Of a stretch of DNA of 64,000 nt, positions 35,767 through 57,620 are shown in pieces (position 1 is the stretch's first letter; every line of letters begins with the position of its first letter). The stretch is from Escherichia coli (lineage in GTDB: Bacteria > Pseudomonadota > Gammaproteobacteria > Enterobacterales > Enterobacteriaceae), in the NCBI RefSeq assembly GCF_002854065.1, contig NZ_CP024147.1; one strand, written 5' to 3'. The translations under genes and the position numbers were made by a program. The notes beneath the pieces were generated by a model, which searched no databases, had not been told where the DNA came from, and saw only the letters and a program-made list of their open reading frames with translations.

Positions 35767-36461
35767 TTGTTATGTCTTATCCCACGGTATTTAATATAGT
35801 TCATTTGGATGTTCATTTCTTTATTTTGCATATGAGTATATTACCCCTTCAAAAAATAAATTAATTAAAACGATTGCTTATATAAAACAAAACTTAAAGC
35901 AAGGAATCTCAATGGATGTTAAACAAAATGAGATTTAGTGAAAACAATAAATTATTCACTTCGTTTTAGATTTGTTTAGCTATAATGTTATACATTCAAA
36001 TGACTGAACATCCTGTAATTAAAACATAGCCTTTATGCTACTTTGTGCCAATTTGCTAAACATTATGGTTGCCTTTTTATATAACGATAATAATGAATAT
36101 AAGCATGACATGAGAATAAGGTTTCAATTTTTGAGTTATATAGGAAAGGTTTAACCTGTTCCTGGCTAAAATACATATAACTGGATGATGACTAAACCAA
36201 AACACATGTGCGTTAAGTATTGAAACGGGCGTATGGCACGCCCGTTGGTTTTATAAATATATTAACCGTTATAAAATAACGTATAGAAAGTCAAGTGATC
36301 ACATTTCAAATATCAATTTGATAGTATTGGCCTGGTGATTATTTATGGGTAGCAATAAAAGGACAGTATTTATCATCCATAGGGATAGTCTCTGTACTTT
36401 TATTCCCATTATGCTAATGCCTTACTGAATTATGAAGCATTTCTTAAGCATCCAACTTAAG

Positions 36462-36866
36462 CTAGATTAATGGTTTATTATTTTCTACATCTTCAATATA
36501 TAAAAGCGTATTATCAATGGCGTAGTAACTGCGTTTGTTATGATTAACATCAGTAACCCAACGGAAAACGCCCGCGTCTGCCAGTGTTGAACAGTATTCC
36601 CGAAATGTAGATTTTCCGCAAATATGAAGCAATGCGGCCTCTTTTATTTTAGCAGGGTTCTTGGTCGTACTAACTTTTAACAGGTTCCTGGTTCCTCTTA
36701 ATAACAAAACCGTGTCATCGTGAGTAATAATTCTGATGTTATCCGTAGCCAGATAATAAATGTAATGTGCAATACGGTGATGTTTTAATTCTGAATAAAA
36801 CCAGGAGAAGTTTTGCTCTTTTCTCACTTGCTCAAACATCTTTTGAAAAACAACGACCTGATCCAT
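36462..36866 (-). CDS. ycgX: uncharacterised protein YcgX
   Basis: 134-aa ORF at the conserved position between iraM and bluR. Confidence 0.75.
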   Translation of the reverse strand: MDQVVVFQKMFEQVRKEQNFSWFYSELKHHRIAHYIYYLATDNIRIITHDDTVLLLRGTRNLLKVSTTKNPAKIKEAALLHICGKSTFREYCSTLADAGVFRWVTDVNHNKRSYYAIDNTLLYIEDVENNKPLI

Positions 36867-37086
36867 CAGGATAATAACCTCTTGTTAGTTGTGAGACTGC
36901 GTAGTGTGCACGATCGGTTTTACCACTTCAATCTGGTCTGTCCTTTGGCTGTGATATGTACAAAGTGTGAAAGGGGGATTACCTGAATTCTCCCGGTGAG
37001 CATTTTGTAATGGACCAGCTCCGGTACAAACGCTGTTGTGGGTTCAGATTATAACATTCTGTCTAAGGGGCGGGATAAAGGTGAAA

Positions 37087-37818
37087 TTAGGGGGCATGAA
37101 AGATGACTTTATAACCTTGCTCACCCCAGTGTTGTAAAAGTTCATTTTGCCTTCTCGTTGGTGCCATGCCTGTCCAGACAATCAATGTTTGCGTCGGGAA
37201 CAGTTCCGGGCGCGGTGATTCAATGGGATCAGCAAGAACAGAAATATGCCATCCTGACAATGATAAACGCCATGCTTCCAGCCACAATCGAGCTCTCTCT
37301 TCAACATTCCACGCCATCAGAATGGCTTCTTTACCGGGCTTACGGCGCATTTCGAAAAGCGAGGCTGCTGCGTATTCAATTAGTGCGCCGTCAAACATAC
37401 TGCTCATAATGCGGGAGGTGTTGTGATCAAGCACGAGACGCTGGCGAACAGGAAGGTAAACATGATTAATCAATTGATCTACTGGGTACTCTCGACCCAG
37501 TGAAATAATTCTCGCGCGTAGTTTGGCAGGATTAGCCATACGAAGAATTGACATCATCTCTTCTTGCAGGCGGCTCCAGTCATCTTCCGTATCCTGGCTG
37601 GTGGTTTCCAGTAATGCTTTAACTTTGCCTACAGGGACGCCATTACTTATCCAACGCTTGATCTCTTCGATACGTTGTATGTCTTCTTCATCAAAGAGTC
37701 GGTGTCCGCCTTCACTGCGCTGTGGTTTTAACAAACCGTAGCGGCGTTGCCAGGCCCGGAGAGTGACAGGATTAATCCCGCAACGTTCAGCAACATCACC
37801 AATGCTGTAATAAGCCAC
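37087..37818 (-). CDS. bluR: MerR-family repressor BluR (YcgE)
   Basis: 243-aa product with N-terminal MerR HTH ([32 protein letters not shown]). Confidence 0.9.
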
Positions 37819-37868
37819 AATTCCTCCTTGCGGTCACAAATCTCCGTCGCCTGTACACGACCCAATAA

Positions 37869-37904
37869 TACTTTGTACAATATACGCTAAAATTGTACAA
37901 AGTA
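37869..37904. promoter_or_regulatory. inverted repeat (13-bp arms) in bluR upstream region, candidate operator
   Basis: tactttgtacaat - 10 bp - attgtacaaagta, perfect 13-bp inverted repeat 50-85 bp upstream of the bluR start. Confidence 0.35.
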
Positions 37905-38022
37905 TAAATAAGATTTCAGCTAAATTGGATGAAACATTATTTTTAATGTGGATTAAATTAAAACATAACGTATTCATTTTCACGATGATTTCCAGAAAAC
38001 TTGCAAAATAATGTGCTGAAAA

Positions 38023-39234
38023 TTATTTTTTCTCCGGCCACGCAACTGAAGGGATACCATTCAATTTAGCTTTAGCAAACAGATCCCCCTGAAACATCTC
38101 AATTCCTGCGGATTCAAGCCACATCCACTCTTCTGGTGTTGCCACGCCCATAGCACTGACTTGAATTTCAAGTGATGTACAGCATTTTATGATCGCCTGA
38201 ATAATTGCCTGCCGTGGTCCGCTTTTATGAACATTGGTAATCAATTCCTGACTGATTTTAATTCTGTCAGGCTGGAAGCGTGACAGGAGTAACAAACCAG
38301 CAAAACCTGCGCCAAAATGATCAATTGCTACACTGATACCGGCAGCCTTTAGCGATTTAACCGCTTCGGCAAACTCATCAAACCGAGATATGACTTCACT
38401 TTCAGTAAATTCAACGATGATTTGTTCAGGCACCAGACCATTGGCCTTTATTTCATCAAGTAAAAAAGAGACTGCGTCAGGCTCGTTAACCAGGGTCATA
38501 GGTAATAGATTGATAGATATCATTTTATCACCGAGCTCAAGTGCGTGTGCCATCGCGAATACAAGCGCCTTACTTTTGAGATCCGCTGTGTAGATTTCCC
38601 CGTCTTTACGCTGCCCAACCGCTATAGCTGACGGGCTGTCTTCATTTTTTTGCACAATGGCTTCAAAAGCGATTATCCGCCGCGATAAGGGATCAACAAT
38701 AGGATGAAAGGCAAAGTGGTCGTTTATATTTGGTGAAAGGGTACAGGAATCAAGTTCTTTATCAGATCTGTCAGCGATAAAAAGCCAGGAGTCTTCAGCA
38801 GGGATCTCGAAATAGGTTGATTGTTCGGTTGCAAGGACAAAAGTACGAAAAAATTGTAGCGCTCTGTCATCATAAGTTAGCTGAAATTTTGATGTGCCTT
38901 TGTCGAATACGGCCTGTAAAACGTCATCTCGCTCGTGCAGGCGTAAATCAAATAATTCCATTCCTGCTTTACCAAAACGGCGAGCAGGCGCGTAATCGCA
39001 CAACAGTTCAACAATATTATAGTGCCGAGGATCCTGGCATATAGCCCGATATATCATTTGAACCTGTTCTTCCGGACCTTCCAGAAGCTGGAAAAAATGA
39101 GAACCATTAAACAGTAAGATCCCTGTTACGTCAGACTGCATGTTCCTGCGATTTGCTATCGAAACCATTTCTTCGATTTTTTTGACAGGTTCGTCGTCAC
39201 GTATATGGCTACGATAAATAAGGGTGGTAAGCAT
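38023..39234 (-). CDS. bluF: blue-light sensor BluF (BLUF plus degenerate EAL domain; YcgF)
   Basis: 403-aa product from MLTTLIYRSHIRDD...; BLUF N-terminus and EAL-like C-terminus. Confidence 0.9.
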   Translation of the reverse strand: MLTTLIYRSHIRDDEPVKKIEEMVSIANRRNMQSDVTGILLFNGSHFFQLLEGPEEQVQMIYRAICQDPRHYNIVELLCDYAPARRFGKAGMELFDLRLHERDDVLQAVFDKGTSKFQLTYDDRALQFFRTFVLATEQSTYFEIPAEDSWLFIADRSDKELDSCTLSPNINDHFAFHPIVDPLSRRIIAFEAIVQKNEDSPSAIAVGQRKDGEIYTADLKSKALVFAMAHALELGDKMISINLLPMTLVNEPDAVSFLLDEIKANGLVPEQIIVEFTESEVISRFDEFAEAVKSLKAAGISVAIDHFGAGFAGLLLLSRFQPDRIKISQELITNVHKSGPRQAIIQAIIKCCTSLEIQVSAMGVATPEEWMWLESAGIEMFQGDLFAKAKLNGIPSVAWPEKK

Positions 39235-39547
39235 TAACTGTCCAGGGTAATGGGAGAGGCGAGAGTAAGACGGTAACAGACATATCTTCCGGTGTCTTTC
39301 TTTTAATACCAAAACATAACTGTTTCTTTACATTGATAAAAAATGGAAAAAGTTGAACACGAGTTGGCGAAAAATCTTGTATAGGTTGTCAGTTAAATGA
39401 TGCAATATGTTTTATCATAACGTATTGTTTTATATGCATTAGCACTAATTGCAAAAAATTAATTTATCATTCTGTACACATATTTCGTACAAGTTTGCTA
39501 TTGTTACCTCACTTAACATTGATTAACATTTTTAACAGAGGCGTAGC

Positions 39548-39784
39548 ATGCATCAAAATTCAGTGACTTTAGATTCTGCGGGAGCAATCACTCGTTACTT
39601 TGCAAAAGCTAACTTGCCTACTCAGCAGGAAACTCTCGGGGAAATTGTGACTGAGATTTTGAAAGATGGACGTAATCTGAGTCGAAAGTCGCTTTGTGCC
39701 AAACTTCTTTGCCGACTGGAACAAGCGACAGGGGAAGAGGAACAGAAACATTATAATGCACTAATTGGGTTGCTTTTTGAATAA
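39548..39784 (+). CDS. ycgZ: small protein YcgZ (connector of two-component signalling)
   Basis: 78-aa ORF with good RBS, divergent from bluF. Confidence 0.85.
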   Translation: MHQNSVTLDSAGAITRYFAKANLPTQQETLGEIVTEILKDGRNLSRKSLCAKLLCRLEQATGEEEQKHYNALIGLLFE

Positions 39785-39813
39785 TGCAACAGCCTGATTA
39801 TTTGGATTTGCCC

Positions 39814-40719
39814 CTATATTTCCAGACATCTGTTATCACTTAACCCATTACAAGCCCGCTGCCGCAGATATTCCCGTGGCGAGCGATAACCCAGCGCACT
39901 ATGCGGATGCCATTCGTTATAATGCTCGAACGCCTCTGCAAGGTTCTTTGCTGCCGTTAACCCGTCTGGTTTGGGCATGATACTGATGTAGTCACGCTTT
40001 ATCGTTTTCACGAAGCTCTCTGCTATTCCGTTACTCTCCGGACTCCGCACCGCCGTGTTCTTCGGTTCAAGTCCCAACATCCGGGCGAACTGGCGTGTTT
40101 CATTAGCCCGGTAGCATGAACCATTATCCGTCAGCCACTCCACTGGAGACGACGGAAGATCGTTGCCGAAGCGGCGTTCCACCGCTCCCAGCATGACGTC
40201 CTGTACTGTTTCACTGTTGAAGCCGCCGGTAGTGACCGCCCAGTGCAGTGCCTCACGATCACAGCAGTCCAGCGCGAACGTGACACGCAGTCTCTCTCCG
40301 TTATCACAGCAGAACTCGAACCCGTCAGAGCACCATCGCTGATTGCTTTCTTTCACGGCCACTCTGCCTGTATGTGCCCGTTTCGATGGCGGTACAGCAG
40401 GTTTTCGCTCAAGCAACAGCGCATTCTAGCGCATGATCCGGTAAACACGTTTGGCATTGATCGCAGGCATACCATCAAGTTCTGCCTGTCTGCGAAGCAG
40501 CGCCCATACCCGACGATAACCATACGTGGGCAGCTCTCCGATAACATGGTGTATACGGAGAAGCACATCCGTATCATCAGTGTGACGACTGCGGCGGCCA
40601 TCCATCCAGTCATCGGTTCGTCTGAGAATGACGTGCAACTGCGCACGCGACACCCGGAGACAACGGCTGACTAAGCTTACTCCCCATCCCCGGGCAATAA
40701 GGGCGCGTGCGCTATCCAC
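39814..40719 (-). pseudogene. insD: IS2 transposase OrfB (InsD) interrupted by in-frame TAG at codon 98
   Basis: Frame [12 protein letters not shown]...AKRVYRIMR / TAG (rc of plus 40426-40428) / [20 protein letters not shown]...; canonical IS2 has Gln at this position as I recall. Confidence 0.75.
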
Positions 40720-41042
40720 TTTTTTGCCCGTCCATATTCAACGGCTTCTTTGAGGAGTTCATTTTCCATCGTTTTCTTGCCGAGCAGGCGCTGGAGTTCT
40801 TTAATCTGCTTCATGGCGGCAGCAAGTTCAGAGGCAGGAACAACCTGTTCTCCGGCGGCGACAGCAGTAAGACTTCCTTCCTGGTATTGCTTACGCCAGA
40901 GAAATAACTGGCTGGCTGCTACACCATGTTGCCGGGCAACGAGGGAGACCGTCATCCCCGGTTCAAAGCTCTGCTGAACAATTGCGATCTTTTCCTGTGT
41001 GGTACGCCGTCTGCGTTTCTCCGGCCCTAAGACATCAATCAT
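40677..41042 (-). CDS. insC: IS2 transposase OrfA (InsC)
   Basis: 121-aa product [34 protein letters not shown]... Confidence 0.9.
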
Positions 41043-41162
41043 CTGTTCTCCAATGACTAGTCTAAAAACTAGTATTAAGACTATCACTTATTTAAGTGAT
41101 ATTGGTTGTCTGGAGATTCAGGGGGCCAGTCTATTATTTAACAGGTTAGCTATGAAGTCGTT

Positions 41163-41435
41163 ATGAAGACATCTGATAATGAAAGTATAAAATATGAAAT
41201 TACTGGCCAGGCGGTGCTCCAGATACTGCGCATGAAGATAAATTTTTCGGTGCAGACTCTTATTAAGCAATTACTCGTAATGAAATCGGCTGAGGAAAAT
41301 GCTTTCCGACGAGATTTAATTGACAGCATAATTCGTGATTTTAGCAACAGTGATACAGGAGGGCCAAACCGAAGAACAGCGATAGCTGACAATAAAAGTA
41401 TGTTCAATGGTAAGAAAATAAACAGAATACATTAA
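41163..41435 (+). CDS. ymgA: small protein YmgA (connector/biofilm-related)
   Basis: 90-aa ORF, first gene after the IS2. Confidence 0.82.
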   Translation: MKTSDNESIKYEITGQAVLQILRMKINFSVQTLIKQLLVMKSAEENAFRRDLIDSIIRDFSNSDTGGPNRRTAIADNKSMFNGKKINRIH

Positions 41436-41463
41436 AATTTCATAAGTAAGATGAGAGGTTACC

Positions 41464-41730
41464 ATGCTTGAAGATACTACAATTCATAATGCAATAACTG
41501 ATAAAGCGTTATCAAGTTACTTTCGCAGTTCGGGTAATTTGTTAGAAGAAGAGTCAGCAGTGTTAGGGCAGGCTGTGACTAATTTAATGCTTTCAGGCGA
41601 TAATGTTAATAATAAAAATATTATCTTAAGTCTGATACACTCCCTGGAAACAACAAGTGATATTCTCAAAGCTGACGTGATCAGAAAAACACTGGAAATC
41701 GTGTTGCGATACACAGCGGATGACATGTAA
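41464..41730 (+). CDS. ariR: AriR (YmgB), regulator of acid resistance/biofilm
   Basis: 88-aa ORF with GAGAGG RBS. Confidence 0.85.
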
Positions 41731-41842
41731 CTTTTAATTATTAAGTATAAGTTTATAGAAAACTCATTCATCTTATTTTTGTCTGTCGCTTTAGACTATA
41801 CACAGCATAATTTTATTGGGTTAATATTTCTACGAGGCTGAC

Positions 41843-42091
41843 ATGAATAATTCAATCCCAGAGAGATTTATTTTTCAATGTGCTTTGTTTAAAAATCTCG
41901 AGAGGGAGGTATTCATGACGCATGGGTATGTTGATAGTCATATTATTGATCAGGCTTTACGCTTGCGTTTAAAAGATGAAACCAGTGTGATTCTTTCTGA
42001 TCTCTATCTGCAAATCTTGCAGTACATTGAAATGCATAAGACTACACTAACGGATATCATTATTAATGACAGGGAATCCGTGCTCTCTTAG
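41843..42091 (+). CDS. ymgC: small protein YmgC
   Basis: 82-aa ORF, TAG stop. Confidence 0.78.
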   Translation: MNNSIPERFIFQCALFKNLEREVFMTHGYVDSHIIDQALRLRLKDETSVILSDLYLQILQYIEMHKTTLTDIIINDRESVLS

Positions 42092-42426
42092 AACTTGAGT
42101 AAGGTTATAGAATAAACATCAGCTGTATCATCATGCTGGTGCAAAGTGAGCATTTCAGGCGTTATGCTTTCTTAATATATCCGCAATATCAGGGGGCAAA
42201 CAGGAATGGAGAGCGCTCGTTTTCCATTCTTGACGCCTGATATCCCACCTAATTTGTTTAATTCTGCCTACATTGTGCTCAATAATTAATAGGTTAGATG
42301 AAGATGGAGAAAATTTTATCTTCGGCGTGGATATTTCTTATGCTCTCTACCATGCTCTCTGTAGACGCCAGCGCGAGCGAATGAACGTCATTTTCATGTA
42401 TTAAACCCTTTGTTCGGGACAAGCGA

Positions 42427-43950
42427 ATGCGCAATACACTCATACCCATCCTCGTTGCGATATGCTTGTTTATAACCGGTGTCGCTATTTTGAACATCCA
42501 GCTCTGGTATTCCGCAAAAGCAGAGTACCTGGCGGGAGCAAGATATGCCGCCAACAATATCAATCATATACTTGAAGAAGCGTCACAGGCGACTCAAACA
42601 GCGGTTAACATTGCCGGGAAGGAATGCGACCTCGAGGAGCAATATCAGCTTGGCACTGAAGCAGCTCTGAAACCTCACCTGCGCACAATCATCATTCTCA
42701 AACAGGGTACGGTCTGGTGTACATCCTTACCGGGGAATCGGGTCCTGCTGTCTCGTATTCCTGTTTTCCCGGACAGTAATTTACTGTTGGCTCCGGCAAT
42801 CGACACCGTTAATCGATTACCTATCCTGCTCTATCAGAGCCAATTTGCAGATACGCGCATTTTGGTTACGATAAGTGATCAGCATATTCGCGGGGCGCTT
42901 AATGTACCCTTGAAAGGGGTAAGGTATGTATTACGCGTGGCGGATGACATTATTGGACCTACGGGTGATGTGATAACGCTTAATGGACATTATCCCTATA
43001 CCGAGAAGGTTCACTCCACAAAATATCATTTCACTATTATCTTTAACTCGCCGCCACTCTTTAGCTTCTACAGACTTATCGATAAAGGCTTTGGGATTTT
43101 GATCTTTATTCTGTTAATCGCCTGCGCCGCTGCCTTCCTGCTAGATAGGTATTTCAATAAAAGCGCAACGCCTGAAGAGATCCTGCGGCGGGCTATAAAT
43201 AATGGGGAGATCGTCCCTTTTTACCAACCAGTGGTGAATGGTCGGGAAGGGACATTGCGGGGAGTTGAGGTGTTAGCCCGCTGGAAACAACCTCACGGTG
43301 GATATATTTCACCCGCGGCATTTATTCCACTTGCTGAAAAATCCGGATTAATCGTTCCGCTTACGCAAAGCCTGATGAATCAGGTTGCCAGACAGATGAA
43401 CGCTATCGCGAGTAAATTGCCGGAAGGTTTTCATATTGGAATTAATTTTAGCGCCTCGCATATTATTTCGCCGACGTTTGTCGACGAGTGCTTAAATTAC
43501 CGTGACAGTTTTACCCGCCGCGATTTAAACCTCGTTCTGGAAGTTACCGAGCGTGAGCCATTAAATGTTGATGAAAGTCTGGTTCAGCGGTTGAACATTC
43601 TGCATGAAAATGGTTTTGTCATCGCGCTGGATGATTTCGGTACTGGCTACTCAGGGCTTTCTTTTCTGCATGACCTGCATATTGATTATATCAAAATTGA
43701 TCACAGTTTCGTTGGCCGCGTAAACGCAGACCCAGAATCAACTCGGATTCTGGATTGTGTATTGGATCTGGCGCGTAAACTTTCGATCAGTATCGTCGCT
43801 GAAGGTGTCGAAACCAAAGAACAACTTGACTATCTGAACCAAAATAATATCACATTTCAGCAGGGTTATTATTTCTATAAACCTGTTACATACATCGACC
43901 TGGTCAAAATTATCCTTTCTAAACCGAAGGTGAAGGTTGTGGTTGAGTGA
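42427..43950 (+). CDS. pdeG: c-di-GMP phosphodiesterase-family protein PdeG (YcgG), CSS-motif plus EAL domain
   Basis: 507-aa product with N-terminal TM, periplasmic domain, second TM and C-terminal EAL domain. Confidence 0.87.
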   Translation: MRNTLIPILVAICLFITGVAILNIQLWYSAKAEYLAGARYAANNINHILEEASQATQTAVNIAGKECDLEEQYQLGTEAALKPHLRTIIILKQGTVWCTSLPGNRVLLSRIPVFPDSNLLLAPAIDTVNRLPILLYQSQFADTRILVTISDQHIRGALNVPLKGVRYVLRVADDIIGPTGDVITLNGHYPYTEKVHSTKYHFTIIFNSPPLFSFYRLIDKGFGILIFILLIACAAAFLLDRYFNKSATPEEILRRAINNGEIVPFYQPVVNGREGTLRGVEVLARWKQPHGGYISPAAFIPLAEKSGLIVPLTQSLMNQVARQMNAIASKLPEGFHIGINFSASHIISPTFVDECLNYRDSFTRRDLNLVLEVTEREPLNVDESLVQRLNILHENGFVIALDDFGTGYSGLSFLHDLHIDYIKIDHSFVGRVNADPESTRILDCVLDLARKLSISIVAEGVETKEQLDYLNQNNITFQQGYYFYKPVTYIDLVKIILSKPKVKVVVE

Positions 43951-44081
43951 AAATCGATCACTAAGGCCATGATGCGGTGTAATTATAGACAGCTAATTAG
44001 CTCGTTGCCTCTTGTTACTATTGTTCATTATTTTGTTTGCTATAATTGTTTGAAAGTTTTGACAGGATTGCCATTAGTAGC

Positions 44082-44300
44082 ATGAACAATAGTAATAATC
44101 TGGATTATTTCACTCTCTATATCATCTTTTCCATTGCATTTATGCTGATCACTCTCCTGGTCATCCTTATTGCAAAACCCAGTACCGGGCTGGGAGAAGT
44201 GCTTGTGACGATAAATTTGCTTAATGCCCTTGTTTGGCTGGCGATCAATCTGGTTAATCGATTAAGGGAAAGACTCGTCAGCCACAGGGATCAGCAATAA
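44082..44300 (+). CDS. ymgF: small inner membrane protein YmgF
   Basis: 72-aa product MNNSNNLDYFTLYIIFSIAFMLITLLVILIA... with two hydrophobic helices. Confidence 0.75.
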   Translation: MNNSNNLDYFTLYIIFSIAFMLITLLVILIAKPSTGLGEVLVTINLLNALVWLAINLVNRLRERLVSHRDQQ

Positions 44301-44699
44301 TCTTTCAGTTTCTCACTGTCAGCATGCGGCTGAATGGGGTGCTGACAGTGAACGCCTGGATCATTGAAGGAAAGGAATTATTGCGCAAATAGTTGTCAAC
44401 CCTGGTGTTATCACAGTTGTTTTTATATATCATTGAAATAATTTCTATGGCAACTATCAATGATTGTGATGTCGAAGAGTTATTTGTTAAACAAAATCGT
44501 CACCTCAAAGTGATCAATGTCATGAAAATAAGGTGAAAAATAATAATGCCGACTTATTTATCATTTATATATTGTTGCTGTTTATCTATTTAAATTTCTT
44601 GTGCTTTTGTTTTTGTCTTTACCCTCCGTTTTGGTAATCTGAACTCATAGGTTATTTGACCAGGAATGTTTGTTAATCCAATGAATGGATGGTTAATCT

Positions 44700-47363
44700 A
44701 TGAAACTGAAAAAACTCCCCGGGTTTAGTTTAGGACTTATTGCTCTGGCGGTGGGTAATGCATATGCAACACAATTGTTGGATGATTATAGTATAATTTC
44801 CTATATAACCGATGAAGAATCGCCGATTCAAATCAAAGATAATACTTTGAAAAGTAATGAAGAATATCTAACCACTGAAGACGAAAGCCATGCTGTGAAA
44901 GTGGATGACGGTGTAACTGGATATATAAATAATGCCAGTGTGATGACTAGTGGTGATGGATCTTATGGTATTTCTGTTGATAGTCAAAACAAAGTATTAT
45001 ATATAAGCGATAGCGATATTAAGACCTCTGGAAGCGTATCTAACAAAGAAAATAACCAAGATGTTAATGGAGGGATAACAGCCAGCGCAGTAGTCAGTGA
45101 ATTTGGTGGCACCATCGTTATGAATGGTGATAATTTAGTCGAGACGGGGGGGGCATATTCAGCGGGACTTTTAAGTCAGGTTAATGATTCTGGAAATGTG
45201 GAAAATAACACTCGTCTTGAAACCACAGATAAAACGATCATTGTTACCTCTGGGGAAAATGCAGTAGGTGTTCTTGCATGTTCAAGACCTGGAGAGTCTC
45301 GAACATGTGTCGATGCTGTAGATGATGAAGTTAGTGATTCTAACAGTTACGAAGTTATTAGCCGTGCTGATTTAAAAATGAATGGTGGTTCCATAACAAC
45401 TAATGGCATTAATAGCTATGGTGCTTATGCTAATGGGAAAAAAGCATATATTAATTTAGATTATGTGGCACTTGAAACTGTGGCTGATGGAAGTTATGCA
45501 GTTGCTATTCGACAAGGTAACATTGATATAAAAAATAGTTCTATTACAACAACAGGCACTAAAGCCCCCATTGCAAAAATATACAATGGTGGAGAGTTAT
45601 TTTTTTCCAATGTCACCGCGGTATCAGTAAAAGATAAAGGAATATCAATTGATGCATCAAATATCGATTCTCATGCCAAAATAGCACTATCAAGTGTTGA
45701 ACTTTCAAGTGCTTTGGATAGTATTGATGTTAACAAAACTACAACGAATTTAAGCATCCTTAATCGAAGTATTATCACGCCTGGTAATAATATTCTGGTT
45801 AATAATACTGGGGGTGACTTAAACATAATTTCGTCCAACTCTACTCTAAATGGAGCGACTAAACTCGTTAGCGGCACAACCACGCTGAAGCTTTCAGAAA
45901 ACACAATCTGGAATATGAAAGATGACTCCGTTGTTACCCATCTGACTAATTCAGACAGTATTATCAATCTTTCGTATGATGATGGTCAAACATTTACCCA
46001 GGGAAAAACGTTAACCGTAAAAGGTAATTATGTCGGTAATAATGGTCAGCTTAATATCCGCACTGTATTAGGTGATGATAAATCAGCTACGGATAGACTT
46101 ATTGTGGAGGGTAATACTTCGGGTTCAACTACCGTCTATGTGAAAAATGCTGGAGGAAGCGGCGCGGCCACGCTAAATGGGATCGAACTCATAACTGTGA
46201 ATGGCGATGAATCTCCAGCAGATGCCTTCAGACAAGGTGATGCAAGGATTGCAGCTGGAGCTTTCGAATATCAACTAAAACAACAAGGCAAAAACTGGTA
46301 TTTGACAAGTTATCAGTCAGTGAATGAGGAGGATAACAGCTCAGAGGGAAATTCAGAATCAACAGAAACGCCCACCCCCGTCCTGCGCCCCGAAGCTGGA
46401 AGTTACGTCGCCAACCTGGCAGCCGCTAACACTCTTTTTGTTATGCGTCTGAATGACCGTGCAGGTGAAACGCGCTACATCGATCCTGTAACTGAACAGG
46501 AGCGTTCAAGCCGACTTTGGCTACGTCAAATTGGCGGGCATAATGCCTGGCGTGACAGCAACGGACAGTTGAGAACGACCTCGCATCGCTACGTCTCGCA
46601 GTTAGGGGCCGATCTGTTAACCGGTGGTTTTACCGACAGTGACAGTTGGCGTTTGGGAGTGATGGCTGGTTATGCCCGCGACTACAACTCAACTCATTCC
46701 AGCGTGTCGGATTATCGTTCGAAAGGGAGTGTCAGAGGCTATAGCGCAGGGCTGTATGCCACCTGGTTTGCCGATGACATCAGTAAAAAAGGCGCATACA
46801 TTGACGCCTGGGCGCAATATAGCTGGTTTAAAAACTCGGTGAAAGGGGATGAATTAGCCTATGAATCCTATAGCGCGAAAGGCGCAACCGTCTCGCTGGA
46901 AGCGGGTTACGGCTTTGCCCTGAATAAATCCTTTGGTCTGGAAGCGGCGAAATATACGTGGATCTTCCAGCCACAGGCACAGGCTATCTGGATGGGCGTC
47001 GATCATAATGCGCACACCGAAGCCAATGGCTCACGTATTGAGAATGACGCAAATAACAACATCCAGACCCGACTTGGTTTCCGCACTTTTATTCGTACTC
47101 AGGAGAAAAACAGCGGTCCGCACGGTGACGACTTTGAACCTTTTGTTGAAATGAACTGGATCCATAACAGTAAAGATTTTGCTGTCTCAATGAACGGCGT
47201 GAAAGTCGAACAAGACGGGGCGCGTAATTTGGGGGAAATTAAACTTGGCGTAAATGGCAATCTGAATCCGGCGGCCAGCGTCTGGGGTAATGTGGGCGTG
47301 CAGCTGGGTGATAATGGCTACAATGACACCGCAGTGATGGTGGGCCTGAAATATAAGTTCTGA
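44700..47363 (+). CDS. ycgH: autotransporter (type Va) adhesin-like protein YcgH, full-length ORF
   Basis: 887-aa ORF: signal peptide MKLKKLPGFSLGLIALAVGNAYA, Ser/Thr/Gly/Asn-rich passenger, C-terminal beta-barrel ending ...VGLKYKF. Confidence 0.85.
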   Translation: MKLKKLPGFSLGLIALAVGNAYATQLLDDYSIISYITDEESPIQIKDNTLKSNEEYLTTEDESHAVKVDDGVTGYINNASVMTSGDGSYGISVDSQNKVLYISDSDIKTSGSVSNKENNQDVNGGITASAVVSEFGGTIVMNGDNLVETGGAYSAGLLSQVNDSGNVENNTRLETTDKTIIVTSGENAVGVLACSRPGESRTCVDAVDDEVSDSNSYEVISRADLKMNGGSITTNGINSYGAYANGKKAYINLDYVALETVADGSYAVAIRQGNIDIKNSSITTTGTKAPIAKIYNGGELFFSNVTAVSVKDKGISIDASNIDSHAKIALSSVELSSALDSIDVNKTTTNLSILNRSIITPGNNILVNNTGGDLNIISSNSTLNGATKLVSGTTTLKLSENTIWNMKDDSVVTHLTNSDSIINLSYDDGQTFTQGKTLTVKGNYVGNNGQLNIRTVLGDDKSATDRLIVEGNTSGSTTVYVKNAGGSGAATLNGIELITVNGDESPADAFRQGDARIAAGAFEYQLKQQGKNWYLTSYQSVNEEDNSSEGNSESTETPTPVLRPEAGSYVANLAAANTLFVMRLNDRAGETRYIDPVTEQERSSRLWLRQIGGHNAWRDSNGQLRTTSHRYVSQLGADLLTGGFTDSDSWRLGVMAGYARDYNSTHSSVSDYRSKGSVRGYSAGLYATWFADDISKKGAYIDAWAQYSWFKNSVKGDELAYESYSAKGATVSLEAGYGFALNKSFGLEAAKYTWIFQPQAQAIWMGVDHNAHTEANGSRIENDANNNIQTRLGFRTFIRTQEKNSGPHGDDFEPFVEMNWIHNSKDFAVSMNGVKVEQDGARNLGEIKLGVNGNLNPAASVWGNVGVQLGDNGYNDTAVMVGLKYKF

Positions 47364-51202: not shown

Positions 51203-51721
51203 CCTGGCCTTACTCAATTAGCTATTAATCATCGCCAGCGCGCGATGATGTTCCGAAGACTATAAGGCATGTTATAGTCTGGATTATATTGAGGCAAGTC
51301 ACCCTCCCATTTATTCAGAGTAAAAGTCTATTCTGTGATAAATGGCGCTGATTCATAGCTTAAAAAATACCCTTGTCAATCAACCCATTGCCGTCGTACT
51401 TTTGATTCTTCTTATTTACGCTTCCTTTTTCCGCACCCTAATCGTGACAGCATCTTTAGACCTGTTTAAATATCCAGTATTGAGGCAAGTGTATTTTTTC
51501 ACCATGCCAGGCTTTCTTAACTTTCCATTTTTTGCAGCATCATTAAAGAACAGATACCCGTTATCTTAATATCCGCCACAGAATTGCTCTATCATAGAAA
51601 CCGCAGAAGACGTCTGATACTTCTGTCAGGTCATCGTAACTCGTCCAGGTCAGCGGTTTTGATTACGGATTGATGATGAAATGAGCATAAGTGTTGTACG
51701 GTTGGATTATCAGGATGTGCT

Positions 51722-52090
51722 ATGAATATGATGCGTATTTTTTATATCGGATTGTCAGGTGTGGGGATGATGTTCTCATCAATGGCGTCTGGAAATGACG
51801 CTGGCGGACTTCAATCTCCGGCGTGCGGCATTGTTTGTGACCCGTATATTTGTGTGAACTCAGATGGCATTTCCCCAGAGTTAACAAGGAAATATCTCGG
51901 CGAAAAAACCGCTGAAAACTTACAATCATTACAAGGCTACGATCCCAGCGAATTTACATTCGCTAACGGTGTATTTTGCGATGTTAAAGAAAAATTATGC
52001 CGTGATGATCGTTATTTTGGTGTAGATGGTAAGCGGAGTGGAAAAATCAATCAAACCACCACAAAGATGTTATTTATGTGTCGTGAGTGA
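51722..52090 (+). CDS. ycgJ: uncharacterised secreted protein YcgJ
   Basis: 122-aa ORF with signal peptide. Confidence 0.8.
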   Translation: MNMMRIFYIGLSGVGMMFSSMASGNDAGGLQSPACGIVCDPYICVNSDGISPELTRKYLGEKTAENLQSLQGYDPSEFTFANGVFCDVKEKLCRDDRYFGVDGKRSGKINQTTTKMLFMCRE

Positions 52091-52192
52091 TGTCTTGTTT
52101 ACATTATGTTCTATTCGTCATTAACCTCTTGAGCGACAGAGAGGAGTGGGGCGTTAACGTTTATGACGGGGAGAGTCCCCGTCGGTTGACAT

Positions 52193-52594
52193 TTACTTAA
52201 TTTGAATATCGACGTTATATTTTTTAGTTTTGTTTTTACGGGCGTCGTTTCGGGTTTGCAGCACTCGCAGCTCATATTTGCCAGAAGCAGGGAGTGAGTA
52301 TTGTCCGTGACTATCGAGTTCTGGGGAATATCTGGATAAATCAACAGAATCATCGATTCCTGGCCCGAAGAGGTAAGTATCAGCACCTTCATTAGAGATA
52401 CTCACATGCACTTTCTGACCTTTTTTGGCATAGAAGGTATATGTATCGTAATCGTATCCCTTTATTTCGCCGGAGTACTGAGCGCTGCTATGGCCTTTTC
52501 TGAACTCAACATTGACATTCTTACCCGCAGCAAAGCTCGTGGAGGTTAGCAGTGCAAGCAGCAATACAGCCTTACTGATGCTCTTGATTTTCAT
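52193..52594 (-). CDS. pliG: periplasmic inhibitor of g-type lysozyme PliG (YcgK)
   Basis: 133-aa secreted ORF (signal peptide ...SFAAG). Confidence 0.82.
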
Positions 52595-52801
52595 TGGTAG
52601 TCTCCTGTTCAGAATGAGTACGATGAACTGTTATAATATAACAATCCATTACGGGAGAATTCCAGTGGCTTTCCTGCGTTCGGTAAAATCCCGTCGCGGC
52701 ATTTTTGCCGGGGGGATTACTTATAAAGGGGGCATGGACTCAACAAACCGTAGAATCTACAGCTGGCTGGCTTGTGGCGCGGGTTTCATTGATGTTAGCT
52801 T

Positions 52802-53128
52802 ATGCCAAAACCTGGCATCTTAAAGAGTAAAAGTATGTTTTGTGTGATTTATCGAAGCAGCAAGCGTGACCAGACCTATTTATATGTCGAAAAAAAAGAC
52901 GATTTTTCGCGTGTTCCTGAGGAACTGATGAAAGGTTTTGGTCAGCCTCAGTTAGCGATGATTCTGCCGCTGGATGGGCGGAAGAAACTGGTCAATGCCG
53001 ATATTGAAAAGGTTAAACAGGCATTAACCGAGCAAGGTTACTATTTGCAGTTACCGCCACCACCCGAAGATTTGCTGAAGCAACATCTTTCCGTCATGGG
53101 GCAGAAAACAGACGACACTAACAAATAA
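52802..53128 (+). CDS. ycgL: YcgL domain protein
   Basis: 108-aa ORF. Confidence 0.8.
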
Positions 53129-53199: not shown

Positions 53200-53859
53200 A
53201 TGTATCAACATCACAACTGGCAAGGTGCGCTGCTGGATTATCCGGTGAGTAAAGTAGTCTGTGTTGGCAGTAACTATGCCAAACATATTAAAGAGATGGG
53301 CAGCGCAGTGCCCGAAGAGCCAGTGCTGTTTATTAAACCAGAAACGGCACTGTGCGATCTGCGGCAGCCATTGGCGATCCCATCCGATTTCGGTTCAGTT
53401 CATCATGAAGTCGAACTGGCGGTGTTGATTGGCGCGACGCTGCGTCAGGCTACGGAAGAGCATGTCCGCAAAGCCATTGCCGGTTACGGCGTGGCGCTCG
53501 ATCTGACGTTGCGTGATGTTCAGGGAAAAATGAAGAAAGCCGGGCAGCCGTGGGAAAAGGCTAAAGCGTTTGATAACTCTTGTCCGCTTTCCGGGTTTAT
53601 TCCCGCGGCGGAATTCACCGGCGATCCGCAAAATACAACGCTGGGCCTGAGCGTAAACGGCGAACAACGCCAGCAAGGTACGACTGCGGACATGATCCAT
53701 AAAATCGTTCCGCTGATCGCTTATATGAGCAAGTTTTTTACCCTCAAGGCTGGTGACGTTGTGCTGACAGGCACGCCTGATGGCGTCGGCCCGTTGCAAA
53801 GCGGTGATGAGCTGACAGTCACTTTCGATGGGCATTCTTTGACAACTCGCGTTTTGTAA
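53200..53859 (+). CDS. ycgM: fumarylacetoacetate hydrolase-family protein YcgM (oxaloacetate decarboxylase-like)
   Basis: 219-aa FAH-fold product. Confidence 0.85.
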
Positions 53860-54397: not shown

Positions 54398-54603
54398 TAA
54401 ATTTAATAGATGTTGATGGGGGCTTTCTTAATATACGTCTGGATGCTCGCCATTTCGTAGCCCTGTTTTTGAAAGCGCTCTGTCATAATGAGAGTTACCC
54501 GATACCTTATTATCAACAGGTAACTCTCAATCTTTAAAAAACGTCTGTATTTTTAAATGTGATAAACTTTATACCTTGAGTACATGGAGAGAATAATCGC
54601 TGA

Positions 54604-55515
54604 TCAGACTTCAGGTACCTCAAAGAGTGTCTTTTTACCGTGTCTTTTCTGATACTCATTACAGGTGTTAATCATTTTTTTTGCCGCTTCTTTTAGCAAA
54701 GAAAGCATTAAATCATCATAATCAACATAGAATCTGGTTGTTTCAGTTTCCGTTTTTATCTCCCCGATGGCGGCTATTTCGGTGGTTAATTTCAATTTGG
54801 CGGCATCGATATCTTTATTCGCTTGTTTAACCGTGTTAGACAGGGTGGTAAAGAAACTCTGCACAGATTTTAACTTGTTCTTCAATTCTGGAATCAGTTT
54901 CCCTTCAACTACGCCCGCGGCAATAGAATAGGAAATGATTAATCCAAATGGACCGGCGACGACACCGGCTGCGGCACCGGCATACGCTTCCTTCCTGATT
55001 TTATCTACCTGTGACTGGAAATAGCTGCTTTTTTCTGAAAAATCATTGGTTAACTGGCTATCTAACGCCAGCAGTTTCCCGGAAGCGTTGTTGAAACTTT
55101 GTGAGCTTACCAGCAGGGATTTTTGCGCTTCATTCAGCTTCGTGATGCCGTCATCCAGTACCTTAATGAGAATGTCTTTCTGGGCGGATGCTTTCTTCTC
55201 ATTGTACTCATCAAATAGCAAAATATACGCTGCGAGCAATTGCGTCGCAACACCACACCATTCATACACTGTTTGGGTTGCTTCAAAATACTTATCCTGG
55301 CTATCCATAAGTAAGGTTTTAATATCGCCAACTAAAACGGAGGCTGCCTGTGAATACTCCTGTTTAAAGCGACTTAACTCTTTTATGGTTTCATCAAAGG
55401 TCTGCCAGGGGATGACCTGATCGAGATATTTATTATAAAGATCCAATGCTCCATCTGCGGTTTCGATTGCGTTTTTAACTACCTCTACCGTTTTATCTGC
55501 AACGATTTCAGTCAT
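54604..55515 (-). CDS. hlyE: pore-forming cytolysin HlyE (ClyA)
   Basis: 303-aa product MTEIVADKTVEVVKNAIETADGALDLYNKYLDQVIPWQ...; intact frame. Confidence 0.9.
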   Translation of the reverse strand: MTEIVADKTVEVVKNAIETADGALDLYNKYLDQVIPWQTFDETIKELSRFKQEYSQAASVLVGDIKTLLMDSQDKYFEATQTVYEWCGVATQLLAAYILLFDEYNEKKASAQKDILIKVLDDGITKLNEAQKSLLVSSQSFNNASGKLLALDSQLTNDFSEKSSYFQSQVDKIRKEAYAGAAAGVVAGPFGLIISYSIAAGVVEGKLIPELKNKLKSVQSFFTTLSNTVKQANKDIDAAKLKLTTEIAAIGEIKTETETTRFYVDYDDLMLSLLKEAAKKMINTCNEYQKRHGKKTLFEVPEV

Positions 55516-55848
55516 AATCATTCGCCTCTTTAAATATATAAATTGTAATGAAACTCCTGTTTTACAACTATTAATGAATTTTACTTCATCTAATTCATAG
55601 TTAGCCGGGAGAGATGCGTCAATGTCTTTATTTATATTAATATGATAAATATCAAACAATGTTTAATGTCATTATGGCGAATGCTTCTATTCTATTTTTT
55701 AGCCGGGTGATATTTTTCATTTCTGCTGGATGAGCGTCGTCGCCAGAAGGCCGCGTGAGCACAGGATAAGAGAACGAAAAATCAGCAGTCTATGCAGCGA
55801 CAAATATTGATAGCCTGAATCAGTATTGATCTGCTGGCAAGAACAGAC

Positions 55849-55868
55849 TACTGTATATAAAAACAGTA
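55849..55868 (+). promoter_or_regulatory. LexA (SOS) box upstream of umuDC
   Basis: TACTGTATATAAAAACAGTA: perfect CTGT-N8-ACAG palindrome 20 nt upstream of the umuD start. Confidence 0.85.
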
Positions 55869-55887
55869 TAACTTCAGGCAGATTATT

Positions 55888-56307
55888 ATGTTGTTTATCA
55901 AGCCTGCGGATCTCCGCGAAATTGTGACTTTTCCGCTATTTAGCGATCTTGTTCAGTGTGGCTTTCCTTCACCGGCCGCAGATTACGTTGAACAGCGCAT
56001 CGATCTGAATCAACTGTTGATCCAGCATCCCAGCGCGACTTACTTCGTCAAAGCAAGTGGTGATTCTATGATTGATGGTGGAATTAGTGACGGTGATTTA
56101 CTGATTGTCGATAGCGCTATTACCGCCAGCCATGGTGATATTGTCATCGCTGCTGTTGACGGCGAGTTTACGGTGAAAAAATTGCAACTACGCCCGACGG
56201 TACAGCTTATTCCCATGAACAGCGCGTACTCGCCCATTACCATCAGTAGTGAAGATACGCTGGATGTCTTTGGTGTGGTGATCCACGTCGTTAAGGCGAT
56301 GCGCTGA
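55888..56307 (+). CDS. umuD: DNA polymerase V accessory subunit UmuD
   Basis: 139-aa LexA-like S24 peptidase fold (CGFPSPA...ASGDSM). Confidence 0.95.
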
Positions 56308-57575
56308 TGTTTGCCCTCTGTGATGTAAACGCGTTTTATGCCAGCTGTGAGACGGTGTTTCGCCCTGATTTATGGGGTAAACCGGTGGTTGTGCTATCGA
56401 ATAATGACGGTTGCGTTATCGCCCGAAACGCTGAGGCAAAGGCGCTTGGCGTTAAAATGGGCGATCCCTGGTTCAAACAAAAAGATCTGTTTCGTCGCTG
56501 TGGCGTGGTTTGCTTTAGCAGCAATTATGAGCTTTACGCAGACATGAGCAATCGGGTGATGTCGACGCTGGAAGAACTATCGCCCCGCGTCGAGATTTAC
56601 AGTATTGATGAGGCATTCTGCGATCTGATAGGTGTGCGTAATTGTCGCGATCTGACTGACTTTGGCAGAGAAATTCGCGCAACGGTGCTACAACGTACCC
56701 ATCTTACTGTTGGTGTGGGGATCGCCCAGACCAAAACGCTGGCTAAGCTTGCCAATCATGCGGCAAAAAAATGGCAGCGGCAGACGGGTGGGGTGGTGGA
56801 TTTATCAAATCTGGAACGCCAGCGTAAATTAATGTCTGCTCTCCCCGTGGATGACGTCTGGGGGATTGGACGGCGGATCAGCAAAAAACTGGACGCGATG
56901 GGGATCAAAACCGTTCTCGATTTGGCGGATACAGATATCCGGTTTATCCGTAAACATTTTAATGTCGTGCTCGAAAGAACGGTGCGTGAACTGCGCGGTG
57001 AACCCTGTTTGCAACTGGAAGAATTTGCACCGACAAAGCAGGAAATTATCTGTTCCCGCTCGTTTGGTGAACGCATCACGGATTATACGTCGATGCGGCA
57101 GGCCATTTGTAGTTACGCTGCCCGGGCGGCGGAAAAACTTCGCAGTGAGCATCAATATTGTCGGTTTATCTCCACATTTATTAAGACGTCACCATTTGCG
57201 CTCAATGAACCTTATTACGGCAATAACGCGTCGGTAAAACTGCTGACGCCCACTCAGGACAGCAGGGATATCATTAACGCCGCTACGCGATCTCTGGATG
57301 CCATCTGGCAAGCGGGCCATCGCTACCAAAAAGCGGGCGTGATGCTGGGGGATTTCTTCAGTCAGGGAGTCGCGCAGCTCAATTTATTCGATGACAACGC
57401 ACCGCGCCCCGGGAGTGAGCAATTGATGACGGTAATGGATACACTGAATGCTAAAGAGGGCAGAGGAACACTCTATTTTGCCGGGCAGGGGATCCAGCAA
57501 CAATGGCAGATGAAGCGAGCCATGCTTTCACCACGTTATACAACGCGAAGTTCTGATTTACTGCGGGTCAAATAA
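56307..57575 (+). CDS. umuC: DNA polymerase V catalytic subunit UmuC
   Basis: 422-aa Y-family polymerase [15 protein letters not shown]...; start overlaps umuD stop. Confidence 0.95.
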   Translation: MFALCDVNAFYASCETVFRPDLWGKPVVVLSNNDGCVIARNAEAKALGVKMGDPWFKQKDLFRRCGVVCFSSNYELYADMSNRVMSTLEELSPRVEIYSIDEAFCDLIGVRNCRDLTDFGREIRATVLQRTHLTVGVGIAQTKTLAKLANHAAKKWQRQTGGVVDLSNLERQRKLMSALPVDDVWGIGRRISKKLDAMGIKTVLDLADTDIRFIRKHFNVVLERTVRELRGEPCLQLEEFAPTKQEIICSRSFGERITDYTSMRQAICSYAARAAEKLRSEHQYCRFISTFIKTSPFALNEPYYGNNASVKLLTPTQDSRDIINAATRSLDAIWQAGHRYQKAGVMLGDFFSQGVAQLNLFDDNAPRPGSEQLMTVMDTLNAKEGRGTLYFAGQGIQQQWQMKRAMLSPRYTTRSSDLLRVK

Positions 57576-57620
57576 ATATAGCGGCAGGAAAAAAGCGCTC
57601 CCGCAGGAGCGCCGAATGGA

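Follow-up and report, generated by a model that had tools for sequence, protein, structure and literature searches.

The locus analysed here raises the question of whether the short palindrome in front of the polymerase V genes of Escherichia coli is the element through which LexA controls them, and whether it does so from within their promoter and for these genes alone. The umuDC SOS box itself is no novelty: it has been characterised since the mid-1980s and is the basis of the umu genotoxicity test, and Kitagawa 1985 and Perry 1985 are reportedly the original footprinting and start-site papers. The original prediction for this site, a LexA operator overlapping the umuD promoter, was offered as a sanity check, and rightly so: the site is already known and is the same as the K-12 operator, nothing new is added to it here, and its worth is that of a calibration point. 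The window, by which we mean the whole 64-kb stretch of DNA that was analysed, is 99.9% identical to E. coli chromosomes. The regulatory genes lexA and recA lie outside it, and we assume their presence because the species is E. coli, in which lexA is a core gene. On the evidence given below, we consider positions 55849-55868 to be the only LexA operator of chromosomal umuDC, and one of high affinity, with a probability of about 0.97. The present analysis itself provides the sequence of the site, its matrix score, its rarity, the match to K-12, the assignment of the genes and the conservation of the box position; the LexA dependence, tightness and late timing of umuDC expression are taken from the literature on the identical K-12 promoter.

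The genes downstream of the palindrome are umuDC, as had been predicted, since both reading frames pass the curated NCBIfam cutoffs and the key residues of UmuD are present. umuD, the first gene of the operon, lies at 55888-56307 on the plus strand and encodes a LexA-like S24 self-cleaving protein of 139 aa that scores 163.3 bits with NF007621 (cutoff 110); its Cys24-Gly25 cleavage site and its Ser60/Lys97 dyad can be read directly from the sequence. umuC, at 56307-57575 on the same strand, encodes the catalytic subunit of polymerase V, a Y-family polymerase of 422 aa, which scores 890.3 bits with NF002955 (cutoff 431) in a match that spans all 422 profile positions (1-422). A single nucleotide is shared by the two genes at the junction TGATG, an arrangement of translationally coupled genes, and the ATG of umuD at 55888 follows the end of the box after 19 bp. 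Upstream, on the other strand, the operon is neighboured by hlyE, with which umuD shares an intergenic region of 372 bp and about 40% GC, and downstream by dsbB. The locus is matched, with the same four genes annotated, in 5,422 of 5,426 complete E. coli genomes, and umuD is annotated there in more than 5,400 genomes.

Two further features of this neighbourhood are worth recording. hlyE (54604-55518, minus strand) is apparently intact here, with a full-length match to NF008477; in the closest genome, that of strain 100416, it is annotated as frameshifted. Furthermore, the intergenic region holds a full-length match (111.9 bits, Rfam) to the candidate small RNA C0299 (RF00119) at 55750-55828 on the plus strand. 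This candidate is thus encoded on the umuD strand; its 3' end reaches into TTGATC, the putative -35 hexamer, and leaves 20 nt to the umuDC box. A terminator scan of 55500-56000 returned 0 terminators, so that no terminator-like site was found between C0299 and the box.

The palindrome itself, TACTGTATATAAAAACAGTA, lies at 55849-55868 to the base, as predicted, and has no other exact match in the 64-kb window and none in 100 dinucleotide-preserving shuffles of it. Read directly, its left half-site CTGT lies at 55851-55854 and its right half-site ACAG at 55863-55866, which together delimit a CTGT-N8-ACAG core at 55851-55866, and the outer arms TACTGT and ACAGTA form perfect inverted repeats. Compared with the consensus TACTG(TA)5CAGTA, as quoted in PMC6590174, the site matches at 18 of 20 positions, the two exceptions are positions 12 and 14, where A replaces T, and 16 of the 20 positions are self-complementary. 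The description of the operator as 'perfect' therefore stands for the half-sites and the outer arms, but not for the spacer, to which both mismatches belong. Moreover, the core alone is weak evidence, as it occurs near chance level: two copies are present in the window against 0.62 expected, and at least two were found in 9 of the 100 shuffles. We regard the second copy, at 42761, as a chance occurrence, as it has a GC-rich spacer, scores only 7.3 bits with the matrix described below and lies inside an EAL-domain gene.

The full site is far more telling than its core. We scored the window with a symmetrised LexA weight matrix built from 14 of the 16 published E. coli SOS boxes (PMC3009722 Table 4), from which the umuD box and the identical sbmC box had been left out, so that the umuDC operator was scored as a held-out site. 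CTG is invariant in 13 of these 14 training boxes. With 26.84 of a possible 30.41 bits, the umuDC box ranks first among 63,981 positions, and the best score across 200 simulated 64-kb sequences was 20.28 bits. The training sites reach 14.4-27.4 bits, scored on a matrix that includes them, polB being the weakest. The original prediction had named a sub-threshold score in a LexA motif scan as its refutation; instead, the site tops the window at 26.8 bits, compared with 14.4 for polB. The exact P for its score is 2.2e-10 per position, which amounts to 1.4e-5 expected sites per 64-kb window or 0.001 per 4.6-Mb genome. In this window, true operators can hence be told apart from background with a simple LexA matrix of this kind.

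All other positions in 55780-55900 stay at or below 0 bits, which argues for a single operator at umuDC. 'Two SOS boxes' have been described in a synthetic promoter derived from umuDC (PMC9074414), and a CTG-N10-CAG motif at 55831-55846, just upstream of the umuDC box, may be the second of them. We rejected this motif as a LexA site, given that it has a GC-rich spacer and that the corresponding 20-mer at 55829-55848 scores -6.6 bits.

The published record names the same sequence. The comparison with the published umuDC operator, which had been proposed as a check, yields an exact agreement: the same 25-mer, ACTACTGTATATAAAAACAGTATAA, is given as the umuD box, and its core is also given upstream of the UV-induced umuD/umuC transcript (PMC3009722 Tables 4, 7). 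In K-12 MG1655, the 20-mer upstream of b1183 (NC_000913.3, about 1230728-1230747) is identical, as are its flanks (55810-55900), its 19-bp distance to the umuD ATG and its neighbours hlyE and dsbB. The identity is base for base from 55790 through the umuD start, and the three substitutions that distinguish the two sequences, at 55753, 55764 and 55789, all lie further upstream in the intergenic region; operator and core promoter thus show no difference from K-12. Of 5,420 E. coli records, 4,998 share at least 99% identity over the 101 bp that surround the box, and in four divergent E. coli promoter variants, the substitutions fall on 55837, 55838 and 55871, with the box and TTGATC never changed.

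A more independent view of the operator comes from diverged relatives of the operon. We searched plasmids with UmuD by tblastn, which returned thousands of homologues, and took ten with a protein identity of 48-60% for comparison. Exactly one strong LexA box (19.1-25.3 bits) precedes 8 of these 10 umuD-like operons, and its end is 17-26 bp away from the first operon gene wherever the start of that gene is annotated. The two operons with no box, on Enterobacter pNDM-Exn692B and Proteus pSNYG35, have an ISKox3 transposase gene or merR directly upstream, which suggests that their native promoters have been replaced; these umuD homologues may have escaped SOS control or may be inactive, and the one on pSNYG35 is not followed by umuC. 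That the box has been kept in place across such diverged operons is independent support for its function, and the arrangement of box and operon is, as far as these sequences reach, conserved well beyond the homology of the promoter sequences.

The position of the box relative to the promoter needs a closer look, as a strict sigma-70 consensus scan of 55500-56000 found 0 promoters. By eye, a candidate -35 hexamer TTGATC (4/6 to TTGACA) can be discerned at 55826-55831 on the plus strand, 17 nt upstream of the box. From this 17-nt spacing, the -10 hexamer would be TACTGT (55849-55854, plus strand; 3/6, with T1, A2 and T6 kept), that is, the first six bases of the umuDC box; the total of 7/12 for this pair is below the scan threshold. 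TTGATC is also the hexamer that was changed to TTGACA in the umuDC-derived synthetic SOS promoter, so that the pairing of TTGATC with TACTGT would be the arrangement implied by that construct (PMC9074414). Under relaxed hexamer scoring, an alternative -10 is TATAAA (5/6) at 55856-55861 on the plus strand, equally inside the box, which in combination with CTGGCA (55834-55839, 4/6) and a 16-nt spacer reaches 9/12. Natural variants alter CTGGCA at 55837 and 55838, which indicates that this hexamer is not strongly constrained, and the lack of such variation in TTGATC mildly favours the TTGATC/TACTGT pair. In eight of nine umuD-like loci, the box is preceded, at a distance of 17-23 nt, by a hexamer that begins with TTG, and neither box positions 1-6 nor box positions 8-13 form a consistent -10. 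Since both main -10 candidates lie inside the box, the two elements would overlap under either assignment, and indeed all of the best candidates under relaxed scoring have a -10 that falls within the box or overlaps it. The overlap of the umuDC box with the umuD promoter, as originally proposed, is in our view a well-founded inference. The K-12 umuD transcription start probably lies inside the SOS box.

A different geometry is conceivable, in which LexA does not occlude the promoter but acts as a roadblock downstream of the start, with transcription arriving from an upstream promoter or by read-through from C0299 and with the box at about +8 to +27. Under relaxed scoring, TTGATA (55807-55812) and TCTGCT (55830-55835), separated by 17 nt, provide such an upstream candidate with 8/12 and a TG extension, and C0299 runs on the same strand towards the box with no terminator-like site before it. 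TCTGCT, however, is a very poor -10 that lacks the conserved A2, better candidates (TATAAA and TACTGT) are available inside the box, and C0299 is a candidate transcript only. Above all, a 47-bp synthetic promoter that starts at TTGATC is active and SOS-inducible with no upstream DNA (PMC9074414), and for this reason we deem the roadblock improbable. A still smaller probability attaches to the idea that the box is shared, acting as a bidirectional SOS operator that also controls the divergent hlyE or the C0299 RNA. hlyE and umuD do have a single intergenic region in common, and hlyE was up after UV in one microarray study, so far as its citation by a later paper conveys (Courcelle 2001, as cited in PMC3009722). 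Yet the tiling-array study that cites it found hlyE down, not up, after UV (PMC3009722), the gene is not in the SOS gene tables of PMC6590174, the umuDC box is more than 330 bp away from the hlyE start codon, and C0299 ends 20 nt before the box is reached.

The least probable reading of all is that the palindrome is a chance product of AT-rich sequence or a generic promoter element, with LexA control located elsewhere or absent. The base composition of the intergenic region and the lack of significant enrichment of the loose core in the window speak for it. But even with a 70% AT background, the P for the full site is 2.2e-9 per position, nothing else in its surroundings scores above 0 bits, it is identical to the K-12 operator, and LexA boxes occupy the same position in diverged homologues. 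Score, P and homologue boxes together effectively refute a chance palindrome.

We therefore return to the single operator in front of umuD, for which the literature on the identical K-12 sequence provides the regulatory side. Its K-12 counterpart has a published heterology index of 2.77 and has been treated as a high-affinity operator (PMC2994835), and as the two operators are identical, this index transfers directly to the present site. In a ranking of genes by UV induction, umuD and umuC stand near the top (PMC3009722). In undamaged cells, a umuDC-gfp reporter shows no detectable basal expression, with 0.09% of cells expressing it strongly; a defect in lexA goes with high expression, and a recA strain expresses the reporter less (PMC2994835). 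In its timing, umuD has been classed as 'late' together with sulA: at the highest dose it peaks at 65 min, the latest time observed, and it has a high ED50 and is barely detectable at low dose; the LexA off-rate was the parameter that best separated operators, and timing correlates with it (PMC5999292). Sub-inhibitory ciprofloxacin did not induce umuD (preprint, bioRxiv 2024.11.28.625836). Finally, genotoxins induce the 47-bp synthetic promoter, which contains the umuDC box and in which TTGATC has been improved to TTGACA (PMC9074414). The tight SOS control of polymerase V that the original prediction invoked is well documented by the heterology index and the small fraction of expressing cells, by the late response and high ED50, and by the lack of induction under sub-inhibitory ciprofloxacin.

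Taken together, these data are consistent with the following mechanism. In undamaged cells, a LexA dimer would sit on both half-sites, CTGT and ACAG, and since the box would cover the -10 together with the start of transcription, RNA polymerase would presumably form no productive open complex there, which would leave umuDC essentially silent. Upon DNA damage, RecA filaments on single-stranded DNA would stimulate the self-cleavage of LexA, so that the pool of free LexA falls. This operator, one of those nearest to the consensus, would release LexA slowly and would be vacated late, and not before damage has become heavy or persistent. UmuD and UmuC would then be made, UmuD would be cleaved to UmuD', and the resulting polymerase V (UmuD'2C) would carry out error-prone lesion bypass. 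The high affinity of this operator would thereby restrict a mutagenic polymerase to severe or prolonged damage, which makes it relevant to stress-induced mutagenesis and to the evolution of antibiotic resistance.

On a larger scale, the operator and its operon belong to a segment that is not shared by all relatives. ycgN abuts dsbB in Enterobacter and Leclercia, and minC abuts ycgL in E. fergusonii, Salmonella, Citrobacter, Enterobacter, Kosakonia and Leclercia. These adjacencies identify two stretches of the window, both absent from the otherwise syntenic order minC-ycgL-ycgM-ycgN(-dsbB) of these relatives, as lineage-specific insertions: one of 3.2 kb (about 54398-57607) between ycgN and dsbB, with hlyE, the operator and umuDC, and one of 1.5 kb (about 51338-52823) with a second LexA-type box, ycgJ and pliG. 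It thus seems that umuDC and its operator were acquired jointly. Four of the five best matches of the LexA matrix in the window lie within 4.4 kb of each other (51.4-55.9 kb), in a mildly AT-rich region of 40-44% GC. The weaker matches, with 17.6 bits at 53324-53343 in ycgM, 13.4 bits at 52330-52349 in pliG and 12.5 bits at 44915-44934 in an autotransporter gene, are at chance level genome-wide, as 2.5-25 or more of them are expected per genome.

The gene that contains the last of these matches encodes an intact autotransporter of 887 aa (44700-47363), the counterpart of which is annotated as fragments in strain 100416. That strain, which is otherwise 99.95-99.98% identical, lacks the 10.2 kb at 35978-46151, a stretch that also includes a gene for a CSS-motif EAL protein at 42427-43950. 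In its place, strain 100416 carries IS3 fragments and a group II intron; the window contains no such intron.

The second LexA-type box, ACCTGTTTAAATATCCAGTA at 51460-51479, scores 21.62 bits, above the best of all 200 simulations, and 0.16 sites of this strength are expected per genome. It lies in the 519-bp intergenic region between minC and ycgJ, 257 nt from the ATG of minC and 242 nt from that of ycgJ. K-12 has the identical box (1226338-1226357), and in five E. coli sequences the SNPs lie just outside the box and leave it unchanged, a sample too small for statistical significance. A 21-aa reading frame that starts at 51505, just past the box, was discarded, since K-12 and three further strains have ACG in place of its ATG. 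ycgJ and minC are absent from the SOS tables of PMC6590174 and from the UV tiling-array paper (PMC3009722), and we found no link of ycgJ or of E. coli minC to LexA in the accessible literature. The segment with this box is absent from all six other genera that we examined, in which it has no syntenic counterpart.

The same 20-mer is nevertheless found elsewhere. In a scan of species-representative genomes, exact copies of it turned up at ten loci of other Enterobacterales, compared with about 0.5 expected by chance, and in all ten, it lies some 40-60 nt upstream of a gene for an antirepressor-like protein of 235-253 aa. This protein has an ANT/KilAC domain (86.8 bits) and a Rha-like N-terminus just below the cutoff. 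The antirepressor-like proteins are 65-90% identical to each other, and the box is 100% identical. Such perfect, promoter-proximal conservation in front of these genes speaks for a genuine LexA operator, and very probably, the 20-mer is one. The homology of the E. coli locus to these loci is confined to the box (20-24 bp), and the antirepressor-like gene is absent from the 64-kb window. The E. coli copy could be a relic with no target of its own, or it could serve ycgJ or minC as an SOS operator that has so far escaped notice. The stronger proposal, that 51460-51479 works as an SOS operator that the standard lists do not include, a relic of or convergence on the Enterobacterales antirepressor box that controls ycgJ or an upstream minCDE transcript, is in our judgement rather unlikely; if true, it would place ycgJ or this minCDE transcript under DNA-damage control in E. 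coli.

Among known systems other than K-12 umuDC itself, the umuDC-like operons of plasmids resemble chromosomal umuDC in layout. impCAB, the samAB/mucAB-type operons and the umuDC operons of Klebsiella and Citrobacter plasmids have a single box, as does chromosomal umuDC, and the boxes of Salmonella plasmids, TACTGTATATAAAAACAGGT, are near-identical to that of umuDC. They differ in the hexamers upstream, which are TTG-initiated and lie 20-23 nt from the box, compared with 17 nt in umuDC, and in impCAB the box precedes an additional dinI-like gene, impC. On the E. coli chromosome, the SOS box of sbmC (gyrI) consists of the very same 20-mer (PMC3009722 Table 4), but it is flanked by TA...TCA instead of the AC...TAA of umuDC and regulates a different gene. 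For sbmC there are also signs that an alternative sigma factor takes part in its control (PMC5999292), so that one and the same operator has different dynamics in a different promoter context.

The boxes of recN, dinD, istR2/tisB, sulA and recA share the CTG-N10-CAG pattern and the AT-rich spacer and score 22-27 bits, and each of them is the operator of a LexA dimer within a promoter, as that of umuDC probably is. Within the SOS regulon, the umuDC box ranks among those of high affinity, in keeping with its late induction, whereas the boxes of recA and lexA, two genes that keep a basal level of expression (PMC2994835), are weaker. Finally, lexA and the colicin genes have two boxes each, whereas umuDC has one.
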